DNA of 64,000 nucleotides, from the NCBI GenBank assembly GCA_030020825.1, contig CP125213.1, forward strand, positions 24,379 to 88,378. Direction: 5' to 3'. Below the pieces are notes generated by a model. The model worked only from the letters and a program-made list of their open reading frames with translations. It was not told where the DNA came from and did no database searches. The DNA is from Candidatus Blochmannia vicinus (nom. nud.) (GTDB lineage: Bacteria; Pseudomonadota; Gammaproteobacteria; Enterobacterales; Enterobacteriaceae). Shown in pieces: positions 4,746-6,731 of the stretch. A program made the position numbers and the translations under genes. The number at the start of each line of letters is the position of its first letter. Within the stretch, counting starts at the first letter, position 1.

Positions 4746-6731
4746 TTAATATTTGGAATTAAAGCTATCATTACTATCGTCTGTATCACAATCCTCGCTA
4801 ATAGATGATGAAGATTGGTTAAGATTTAATTTTAAAAATATTTGTTCCATATCGCTACTAGGGAGTTTATTTTTTTTGCGTTCTGATATGACATTTTCAA
4901 GTTTATTTATATGTTCAGTGGTTCCTATTAAAGAAAATTTGGATTTTTTGTGTATTGACAAACGCTGTGATAAATCATCATTTGCATTAAATTCAATATT
5001 AGGATATTCCGGAAAATAATTATCATGTGTTATTTGATATTCATCATGGCTTGAAGAATAAGTTTGATGTTTCTTATTAAAAGGAATTGAGCAAGATGGA
5101 GATGATAACAATGTATCATTTGGTGTAGAAGATGCCATTGTTGTTGTTGGTTGTTTTTCTGAAAACAGAACAGGAATTGGAGGGGGAGGAGGTGCTGGAA
5201 ATACAAAATCATCTTTTACCTTATCAATATTTTGAGTTTTTTCTGTTGCAATATCGTCATTTATAATGGGATAGGGAATTGATATATTATTATCTTTGAA
5301 GTTATGATGATCATTTTTGTGTATTGTTGGTGAATATTTGATTGAATTTTCTGTAACATTGATTCCAGAGTCATTATTAGTAGTAATAGCAGAGGAGATA
5401 TGATTTTGTTGTGCGCTGGATAGTTTATTTTGGTAAAAATTTTTCACCAATATGTGTATATTTTGCTTTTTTTGTTGCTGATCATTATTTTTAGTTGTAT
5501 TAGTAATATATGAAATAAAAATGTCGTCTTCTCTAGTAATAGGATGGTTAGGTAAATAAAGCGCATAGGTATTACTTGTTATTGGGATAATATTACCTCC
5601 TTGATTTTGCAATAAATTAAAATTCCATTGCTCGTATTTATCATTATTATCGTTAGTTTCAATTATTTTAATTTCTCCAGGATAACCTGTTATTTGTTGA
5701 GTACATGATAATGGTTTTTTATTATTATGATTATTTAGAAATATGCAATTATTGTATTGAACTACAGTAGGTATAAATGGTTGTATTATAGTGTCAAGAT
5801 ATTTCAATAAGGACATGTTATTGTTTTTATTTGTGTACTGTATTTGTTCTGAAATAGGAGTTCCAAATTGGTAATCAATTAATATTTGACAAGCAGTATT
5901 ACAATATTTCTTGTTTATAAAAATATTATTTATATTAAAACCTAATATGGGAATAGGTTTATAGTTTAAATCTAATGATAAATAGTAGTCATTATTTTTT
6001 GTATTAAAAATTTTTTCATATTTTTTGTCATAAAGAAGTCGTTCTAATTTTATTTTACCAGTAAATGCTAAAAAATATGGAAATTTAATTTGAATATGCA
6101 TTTGATAACCACTATTTGGGTTTTTTATATCATATTGTTGTAATGATTTTTTAGAAGTAAAAATATTATCTAAATTGTAATAATTACTTAACATGAATAA
6201 TGTATTATGCAGCCAATATTCTACACCGAAATTAATTGAGCATGGTTGGTTGCTTTGATTAGAAATAGGGCAATGATATAAGGTATTGCATCCAATAGCA
6301 TGTTTGTTGTTATATAGATGTCTCTTTCCTCCCCCAAAATTTAAAATCTGTTTTGATAAAAGGTTATGTATTCCTAATTGCATAAAGGATAGATTTTCTT
6401 GATATATATTATTTTGTACTCGAAATGAATGAAATACGTTTATTGAATCATTTTGTAATTGTATTTTAGATCCATAGGTAGAAGAAAATGGGGATATATA
6501 GTTGTAATGACTACGAACATTTGGTTTGCCTATTGTATAGGGATAAATGTTTAGAGTATTATGTTTGTGATCATCATATGCATATAGTTTCATTTTTTGT
6601 TGATATGAATCAACTTGAAATATATTATCATTAATATTAAATTTAGTACGGTTTTTGAGTATGTCGCACCAAGCGATTTCGTTATATACAAGCGCTTGTA
6701 ATACTACTCCTAGTATGATAAATATTAACAT
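4746..6731 (-). CDS. Highly diverged intimin/invasin-family inverse autotransporter (type Ve) with low-complexity, Pro-rich and acidic C-terminal passenger
   Basis: Segments NFGGGKRHL, GCNTLY, FGVEYW, GYQMHI..FPYF..FTGKIKLE, LNYKPIPIL and YQFGTPISEQI match the order of invasin beta-barrel motifs (NLGLGxRH, GxNxFxD, GxEYW, GxD..LP.YP.LGxKLxYE, xNYTPxPL, YxFxxPxxxQ). They are followed by one Ig-like unit (ITGYPGE..W..L..QGG.I....Y.L.LP). Recognised by eye. Confidence 0.8.
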   Translation of the reverse strand: MLIFIILGVVLQALVYNEIAWCDILKNRTKFNINDNIFQVDSYQQKMKLYAYDDHKHNTLNIYPYTIGKPNVRSHYNYISPFSSTYGSKIQLQNDSINVFHSFRVQNNIYQENLSFMQLGIHNLLSKQILNFGGGKRHLYNNKHAIGCNTLYHCPISNQSNQPCSINFGVEYWLHNTLFMLSNYYNLDNIFTSKKSLQQYDIKNPNSGYQMHIQIKFPYFLAFTGKIKLERLLYDKKYEKIFNTKNNDYYLSLDLNYKPIPILGFNINNIFINKKYCNTACQILIDYQFGTPISEQIQYTNKNNNMSLLKYLDTIIQPFIPTVVQYNNCIFLNNHNNKKPLSCTQQITGYPGEIKIIETNDNNDKYEQWNFNLLQNQGGNIIPITSNTYALYLPNHPITREDDIFISYITNTTKNNDQQQKKQNIHILVKNFYQNKLSSAQQNHISSAITTNNDSGINVTENSIKYSPTIHKNDHHNFKDNNISIPYPIINDDIATEKTQNIDKVKDDFVFPAPPPPPIPVLFSEKQPTTTMASSTPNDTLLSSPSCSIPFNKKHQTYSSSHDEYQITHDNYFPEYPNIEFNANDDLSQRLSIHKKSKFSLIGTTEHINKLENVISERKKNKLPSSDMEQIFLKLNLNQSSSSISEDCDTDDSNDSFNSKY

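Follow-up and report, generated by a model that had tools for sequence, protein, structure and literature searches.

The window analyzed here is a 64,000-nucleotide stretch of contig CP125213.1 of Candidatus Blochmannia vicinus. On its reverse strand, between ubiX and fumC, it carries a single open reading frame (ORF) of 661 amino acids (aa) plus a stop codon, which encodes an inverse (type Ve) autotransporter (Table 1). The C-terminal end of this protein combines a poly-proline motif found in every orthologue with a tail of about 80 residues that is constrained as strongly as the membrane barrel. In a basal group of orthologues, this tail appears similar, residue by residue, to the VCA region of the eukaryotic SCAR/WAVE actin regulators, which comprises a WH2 part, a connector (C), and an acidic (A) region.

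The assignment as an inverse autotransporter follows from a PF11924 barrel scoring above the gathering threshold, a hydrophobic N-terminus, and 353 aa located C-terminal to the barrel. Because the barrel is N-terminal, the C-terminus is the tip of the passenger, as the initial annotation of this DNA had proposed. That annotation had singled out Pro codons at 5172–5198 (−), the stretch KLENVISERKKNKLPSSD at 4851–4904 (−), and the terminal residues ...SEDCDTDDSNDSFNSKY; all three are present at these positions. The nearest proteins, from Blochmannia of Camponotus ants, are annotated as “inverse autotransporter beta domain-containing protein”. Sub-threshold matches to the NCBIfam models YchO/YchP, Ilp, SinH, and YrIlm were also obtained, and the N-terminal models of Ilp and YrIlm extend to aa 396–402. 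Judging by this alignment, the conserved middle domain that follows the barrel probably corresponds to the first Ig-like domain in passengers of the intimin/invasin type; it had no match among PDB sequences. No LysM domain was detected in the autotransporter. The genome encodes BamA as an 812-aa frame (254 bits). It also encodes a second member of the Omp85 family (a 522-aa frame, 54 bits to PF01103; G000:C1:370295–370783, outside the window), which may be a TamA-like protein and could have a part in assembling autotransporters. The helix limits listed in Table 1 were read with DSSP from an AlphaFold2 (AF2) model of the whole protein, built on a 10-sequence alignment; with a predicted local distance difference test score (pLDDT) of 28, the model is unusable for any other purpose, and even these limits should be taken with caution.

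Table 1 Features of the inverse autotransporter gene and its product (positions in the window)
Feature	Residues (aa)	Position	Strand	Evidence
Whole ORF, inverse (type Ve) autotransporter	1–661 and stop	4746–6731	−	Orthologous and syntenic (ubiX – inverse autotransporter – fumC) across Blochmannia
Hydrophobic, signal-peptide-like N-terminal segment, MLIFIILGVVLQALVYNEIAWC	1–22	6666–6731	−	Read directly from the sequence
Inverse autotransporter beta-barrel	87–308	5808–6473	−	PF11924, E 3.1e-19, 70.1 bits against a cut-off of 22.3
Conserved middle passenger domain, ITGYPGEIKII...	345–430	5442–5699	−	Conservation; lacking in B. obliquus-type orthologues
Linker 1, low-complexity, fast-evolving	431–505	5217–5441	−	Identity and dN/dS
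Poly-proline motif P512-A-PPPPP-I-P520	512–520	5172–5198	−	Conservation; genome-wide scan for Pro runs
Linker 2, fast-evolving	521–583	4983–5171	−	Identity and dN/dS
Putative helix 1, LSQRLSIHKKSK	587–598	4938–4973	−	DSSP on low-confidence AF2 model; hhalign
Turn F599-S-L-I-G603	599–603	4923–4937	−	Conservation; 11–14 aa insert relative to canonical WH2
Putative helix 2, TEHINKLENVISERKK	605–620	4872–4919	−	DSSP on low-confidence AF2 model; profile alignments
Putative helix 3, DMEQIFLKLNL	627–637	4821–4853	−	DSSP on low-confidence AF2 model; profile alignments
Ser-rich acidic tail, NQSSSSISEDCDTDDSNDSFNSKY, with near-terminal Phe657	638–661	4749–4820	−	Conservation; hhalign

To establish how widely the gene is distributed, we searched 401 genomes from 178 genera of the family. 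Whole-protein searches found it in 14 of the 15 other Blochmannia species genomes, and a search with a profile of the tail recovered the fifteenth copy (locus L024 in genome G009), so that all 15 encode it. The tail module was confined to Blochmannia, the tail-profile search finding none in the 177 other sampled genera. Every copy sits between ubiX and fumC, so that orthology is supported by synteny in addition to sequence. A full-length open frame is kept in all 16 genomes, save that the B. floridanus orthologue (L012 3400–3540, genome G011) ends ...TTTDDS*YNI*, with a TAA codon directly before the conserved aromatic position and four codons before the usual end. Three orthologues, L015 (B. 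obliquus, genome G013), L016 (G015), and L024, lack the middle domain (window aa ~345–430) and keep both the Pro run and the tail. These B. obliquus-type copies have much better-preserved barrels (87–168 bits, compared with 70 bits in the window copy) and also the most WAVE-like tails. One study (PMC4389277) places B. obliquus, from Colobopsis, outside the symbionts of Polyrhachis and Camponotus, and gives ~40 million years of coevolution between Blochmannia and its ant hosts. Two more syntenic orthologues of 778–788 aa, with longer linkers, were noted in data from unassembled genomes (L025, on Logan contig SRR32934492_58, and P0011); their first helix (NLLHLLSTHKKSKF and NLLYLLSIQKKSKF, respectively) is closer to the LLxxL pattern of the WH2 helix than that of the window copy.

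We next compared the evolutionary constraint acting on the different parts of the protein, measuring identity at three depths (close, middle, and deep) and the ratio of nonsynonymous to synonymous substitution rates (dN/dS; Nei–Gojobori on codon alignments of seven close pairs). The tail (aa 584–661) was the best-conserved stretch of the passenger, with identities of 0.71, 0.52, and 0.28 and a dN/dS of 0.02–0.28 (median ~0.09). The corresponding values for the barrel were 0.75, 0.42, and 0.26, with a dN/dS of 0.12–0.25. The tail is thus constrained as strongly as the barrel and is under purifying selection. The linkers on either side of the Pro run evolve far faster (linker 1: 0.43, 0.11, and 0.09, dN/dS 0.37–0.64; linker 2: 0.46, 0.09, and 0.07, dN/dS 0.34–0.94), and the middle domain is intermediate (dN/dS 0.12–0.49). 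Outside the barrel, the invariant columns of the 17-sequence alignment were P514, P516–518, F599, and S643. The most conserved residues of the tail were F599, G603, K610, and L611, the K610–L611 pair being nearly invariant; K634 was conserved in at least 90% of the aligned orthologues.

These measurements bear directly on the idea that the gene is the decaying remnant of an ancestral invasin, its motifs being meaningless low-complexity drift. The divergent barrel of the window copy (70 bits against the 155–168 bits of the basal orthologues), the linker dN/dS of up to 0.94, and the premature stop in B. floridanus would all fit such decay. Yet the tail retains its low dN/dS, and the frame is full-length in all 16 genomes apart from that stop. 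Moreover, given the duration of the coevolution of Blochmannia with its hosts reported in PMC4389277, the gene has been retained for ~40 million years in a genome of only 0.7–0.8 Mb. The constraint data effectively refute decay, which we regard as highly improbable.

The poly-proline motif was examined separately, as short runs can arise by chance in low-complexity sequence. Across the six frames of the 780,225-bp genome (28.3% GC), no other run of at least five Pro occurs. Pro makes up 3.5% of ORF residues; from this frequency, ~0.01 such runs would be expected over ~200,000 ORF residues. Its codons are mixed (CCA GCA CCT CCT CCC CCT CCA ATT CCT), and the run is therefore not a slippage homopolymer. 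The four invariant prolines are shared by all 17 aligned orthologues and the eighteenth (L024) reads PPPPPFP, such that the pattern PPP(P)[ILMF]P is present in 18/18. Being conserved, constrained, unique in the genome, and encoded by mixed codons, the Pro run and the tail are real selected features rather than low-complexity noise.

The same comparison separates two claims that had been made for this motif. The poly-Pro run itself is universal. The FPxPhiP core, proposed as an EVH1-binding site of the kind used by Listeria ActA, occurs in only five of the 18 orthologues (as FPAPP or FPTPP in P0001–P0004 and L011); at its position, the others have FLAPP, FSAPP, LVPPP, NIPPP, LCPVP, IIPPP, and similar strings. 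An ActA-type EVH1 ligand was thus ruled out as the conserved function, and the feature that is conserved is a putative generic poly-Pro ligand of the profilin, SH3, or WW type. The motif of the window copy is a candidate site for binding profilin or an SH3, WW, or EVH1 domain. A proposed check, namely conservation of the motifs against the variable linkers, accordingly gave a divided answer: the Pro run and tail are conserved amid linkers of ~0.1 identity, and FPxPhiP varies.

To evaluate the resemblance of the tail to WASP-family VCA regions, we used a profile of 16 tails (the whole-family profile, A3) and a profile of the three B. obliquus-type tails (the basal profile, A4), together with 63 distinct VCAs extracted from 150 WAVE/SCAR representatives. 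The WAVE1 VCA query was checked and is 100% identical to WASF1. When the L016 tail was searched by phmmer against 177,635 PDB sequences, four matches were obtained, the top three of which were WAVE1 (3p8c_D, 7usc_C, and 4n78_D); the alignment covers WAVE1 residues 509–551, that is, the end of WH2, the linker, C, and A. The basal profile again placed WAVE1 on top, with a gapless alignment of 45 residues over LRKV, linker, C, and A. None of 3000 local-window shuffles reached its score against WAVE1, and its score against WAVE2 was reached by 6/3000 shuffles with 10-residue windows and 1/3000 with 15-residue windows. Aligned by hhalign to the 63 VCAs, the basal profile gave an E-value of 3.5e-5 (probability 45%, score 27.5) over 65 colinear columns, which begin at the WH2 helix, cross a 14-aa insert, and continue over LRKV, the linker, C, and A as far as the terminal aromatic. 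Local column shuffling, repeated 300 times, produced no score as high, the best being 23.6. The whole-family profile exceeded 2997–3000 of 3000 composition-preserving global shuffles for WAVE1–3 and N-WASP. Searched against PDB and Pfam at E-values up to 10, it yielded no WH2 or WASP match; its best match, the N-terminal region of FMNL2 (E 0.45), was judged to be due to chance.

A resemblance of this kind could in principle reflect the base composition of the genome, and we therefore scored an AT-rich background consisting of the 624 ORFs of this genome plus all orthologues. With a hidden Markov model (HMM) of the 63 WAVE/SCAR sequences, the three highest domain scores were those of L016 (13.2 bits, independent E-value 0.0024), L015 (9.5 bits), and L024 (7.7 bits); the best unrelated ORF scored 5.3 bits and the window protein −2.0 bits. 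In the opposite direction, an HMM of the basal profile scored WAVE VCAs at 15–23 bits, equal to its score for the window orthologue (22.9 bits), and 55 of the 63 VCAs exceeded the best unrelated ORF (7.0 bits). We consider the B. obliquus-type tails to be WAVE/SCAR-like at the residue level. They share with the VCA of WASF1–3 the order and spacing of an amphipathic helix, LxK[IV], a basic linker, a connector, and an acidic Ser-rich tail, and, as in WAVE, lie downstream of a poly-Pro motif. Their connector helix, NDVLSKILSRKALLIYSDS, resembles that of WAVE and includes the connector Arg (ILSRK, IMNRK, and IIERQ in L015, L016, and L024), and in both cases an aromatic residue stands three to four residues from the C-terminus (DDFSD in the B. 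obliquus-type tails, DDWSD in WAVE).

The background comparison also speaks to a purely bacterial role, in which the Pro run would be a rigid hinge, the tail would serve self-association, symbiont cohesion, or envelope organization, and the WAVE likeness would be accidental. Bacterial surface proteins often contain Pro-rich hinges, the sequences concerned are AT-biased and of low complexity, the PDB E-values are only ~0.4, and the strong signal comes from three related sequences. Nevertheless, the 624 ORFs and 4230 six-frame segments of the same AT-rich composition gave nothing comparable, the Pro run, the only one of its kind in this genome, stays invariant amid hypervariable linkers, and the module is restricted to a genus of cytosolic symbionts. 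We find a bacterial-side role improbable.

The tail of the window copy itself is best described as an orthologue of the B. obliquus-type tails that appears to have diverged beyond direct detection. Its helix 1 follows the family pattern Phi-[Phi/S]-x-x-Phi-x-x-H-K-K-x-K, and its hhalign partner is the WH2 helix LLxxIxxG. The counterpart of helix 2 in these alignments is the IxLRKV end of the WH2 of WAVE together with the basic linker, KLxx[IV] lying opposite LRKV. Between them lies the F599..G603 turn, which has no WAVE counterpart and whose F599 is invariant in all orthologues. Helix 3 is homologous by position to the WAVE connector helix DVAxILxRR, with Lys634 at the position of the conserved Arg; this connector-like helix has no Arg and scores −2.0 bits. 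The Ser/acidic end corresponds in position to the A region, with Phe657 in place of Trp. The C and A motifs of this Camponotus-type copy are thus derived, Arg having become Lys/Leu, the second half of the connector poly-Ser, and Trp Phe. The initial annotation had placed the connector helix at aa 610–627. This register does not hold: aa 606–627 score −4.7 bits as a counterpart of the N-WASP C helix, the stretch falls on LRKV and the linker, and the C-like helix is the one at aa 627–637. The order it described, in which helices and then a Ser/acidic end with an aromatic near the terminus follow the Pro run, does exist; it is conserved, and purifying selection acts on it. Its proposed likeness to WASP-type regulators was borne out at the level of the family, as a WAVE/SCAR type carried by L015, L016, and L024, and not for the tail of the window copy.

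Taken together, the interpretation we favor, to which we assign an even chance, is that the tail and Pro run form a surface-displayed, diverged SCAR/WAVE-like VCA mimic and poly-Pro ligand that would engage the actin-assembly machinery of the host. Several results weigh against it. The WAVE1 matches in PDB, for both the L016 tail and the basal profile, have E-values of 0.36–0.38 and are non-significant alone, and the L015 tail searched by itself against PDB with phmmer returned no WAVE, only PEX3 (E 0.9). The whole-family profile reached only p ~0.02–0.05 under the stricter, layout-keeping local-window shuffles, and its hhalign comparison gave an E-value of 0.13 (probability 0.3%), equaled by 16/300 shuffles. 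Pfam WH2 (PF02205) matched none of the 16 tails or the three full-length basal orthologues at E-values up to 10, the WASF1 control scoring 31 bits, and the WH2-like alignment in hhalign requires the 11–14 aa insert. The A-region Trp, present in 63/63 WAVE/SCAR VCAs, occurs in 0/18 orthologues; those that keep the tail end have Phe or Tyr. The absence of a convincing WH2 and the replacement of Trp by Phe had both been conceded at the outset. The window tail scores −1.0, −0.3, and −2.0 bits against VCA profiles and ranks 144th (with a five-sequence mammalian VCA HMM) and 74th of ~640. In B. floridanus, the stop before the conserved aromatic removes the last few residues of the tail. A lone short Pro run is a weak profilin site, and the AF2 model, at the pLDDT given above, is unusable.

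Some of these observations would also be accommodated if the tail were a host-facing array of short linear motifs with another cytosolic partner, its WAVE likeness reflecting a shared grammar of a basic helix followed by an acidic Ser tail. Candidate partners would be a motor adaptor, a factor of the autophagy or ubiquitin pathways, or a kinase/phospho-dependent adaptor for which the CK2-like tail, rich in SxxD/E, would be the contact. The tail is strongly constrained even in the window copy, which lacks a VCA signal; Trp and a Pfam WH2 are missing; the most conserved residues (F599, G603, K610, and L611) lie in an insert without a WAVE counterpart; and the whole-family profile is only marginally above layout-preserving shuffles. 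Such a shared grammar accounts less readily for the likeness of the basal orthologues, which is found at the residue level (0/3000 local shuffles; the hhalign E-value of 3.5e-5), is colinear up to the terminal aromatic, and is specific to WAVE among the 177,635 PDB sequences. We regard a different partner as rather unlikely, while giving it serious consideration.

The location of the symbiont is compatible with a mimic of actin regulators. In agreement with the initial annotation, Blochmannia lies in the cytoplasm of bacteriocytes without a symbiosomal membrane (PMC3009655). Since the type Ve topology is established, the Bam machinery is encoded, and no symbiosomal membrane intervenes, the tail should face the host cytosol; surface exposure, host contact, and any actin activity of the tail are what we infer from this analysis. 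In the mechanism we propose, the N-terminal barrel would reside in the Blochmannia outer membrane, with the C-terminal passenger threaded to the cell surface and so exposed to the bacteriocyte cytoplasm. The disordered, fast-evolving stalk would present the PPPPP-Phi-P motif and the ~80-aa tail, with its three short helices, Ser/Asp-rich end, and Phe. The tail would then bind Arp2/3, and perhaps G-actin, as a mimic of a host class I nucleation-promoting factor, with the Pro motif bringing in profilin–actin or an SH3/EVH1 protein. The outcome would be actin nucleation or tethering at the surface of the bacterium, which could serve the positioning, segregation, or host cell-to-cell transfer of the symbiont. 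For the Camponotus-type copy of the window, binding may occur without activation, or at a lower affinity. More generally, the tail may grip the host cytoskeleton.

As to its origin, the tail could represent the transfer of a gene fragment from host to symbiont. A fuller scenario, which is attractive though we think it unlikely, is that an ancestor captured or rebuilt a host SCAR/WAVE VCA, fused it to an inverse autotransporter, and kept it for ~40 million years as a surface device that nucleates or tethers actin. If true, this device would hold the naked symbiont in place or move it within bacteriocytes, oocytes, and embryos.

Systems of this kind are already known. RickA of Rickettsia and BimA of Burkholderia thailandensis activate Arp2/3 from the bacterial surface and contain Pro-rich, WH2, and CA regions. 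Compared by their descriptions only, they resemble the Blochmannia protein in that a cytosolic bacterium exposes a Pro-rich region followed by a WASP-family-like tail, and BimA is likewise a type V autotransporter. They differ in belonging to pathogens and in having canonical WH2 motifs and the A-region Trp; BimA, moreover, is trimeric (type Vc) with an N-terminal passenger, whereas the Blochmannia protein is of type Ve, has a C-terminal passenger, and belongs to an obligate nutritional mutualist. Relative to WAVE itself, the Blochmannia protein has no Pfam WH2, its WH2-like part is split by the 11–14 aa insert with an invariant KF..[LI]G, its near-terminal aromatic is Phe or Tyr and in no copy Trp, the connector Arg and most of the residue-level similarity are gone from the window copy, and the module is mounted on a bacterial outer-membrane barrel rather than on a WAVE homology domain. 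With intimin, invasin, and YchO-type proteins, it shares the PF11924 barrel and a post-barrel region that aligns to the first Ilp/YrIlm passenger domain; unlike them, it lacks both a Big-domain array and a C-type lectin tip, carrying instead a disordered stalk and a eukaryote-like tail.

Among endosymbionts, a parallel is offered by the pair of Wolbachia WAS-family proteins Wbm0076 and WD0811, which perturb eukaryotic actin in yeast; Wbm0076 derives from the Wolbachia that Brugia malayi requires (PMC9980815, PMC6160203, PMC1069646). Likened by motif class and description only, Wbm0076 shares with the Blochmannia protein a WASP-family-like module in an endosymbiont required by its host. Beyond that motif class, the two are not known to be homologous. 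Wbm0076 belongs to an alphaproteobacterium that resides in a host-derived vacuole, and it is a candidate type IV effector or membrane protein instead of an autotransporter. Since Wbm0076 is already in print, the suggestion that the locus might represent an undescribed kind of mutualist system cannot be upheld as worded. Our full-text search of the literature on Blochmannia autotransporters or invasins and actin motifs found no paper on this gene. What the locus adds to RickA, BimA, and ActA in pathogens and to Wbm0076 in Wolbachia is the inverse-autotransporter scaffold, its presence in a gammaproteobacterial nutritional mutualist, and a long retention with a visible gradient of divergence. 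Overall, the observations made in the initial annotation are confirmed, and its actin interpretation appears partly supported, mostly through relatives of the window copy.

In other frames, short ORFs of 60–88 aa (4598–4789 (−), 4753–5019 (+), and 5030–5212 (−)) overlap the autotransporter gene at its 3′ end; they look like chance frames in AT-rich DNA.

If the capture scenario outlined above is true, the locus would provide the first type Ve autotransporter that engages actin and, for a nutritional mutualist of insects, the first positioning system based on actin. An active tail would mean that a tool of pathogens and Wolbachia has been domesticated in a nutritional mutualism, and would add cytoskeletal mimicry to the adhesin role of inverse autotransporters. 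The graded series that links the WAVE-like tails of the B. obliquus type with the derived ones of the Camponotus type would offer a natural experiment on how such mimicry is eroded or retuned. Blochmannia is unculturable and genetically intractable. A single gene present in every sequenced Blochmannia, with a defined fragment of ~150 aa, would provide a concrete handle on the positioning and partitioning of obligate cytosolic mutualists and on their passage to oocytes.

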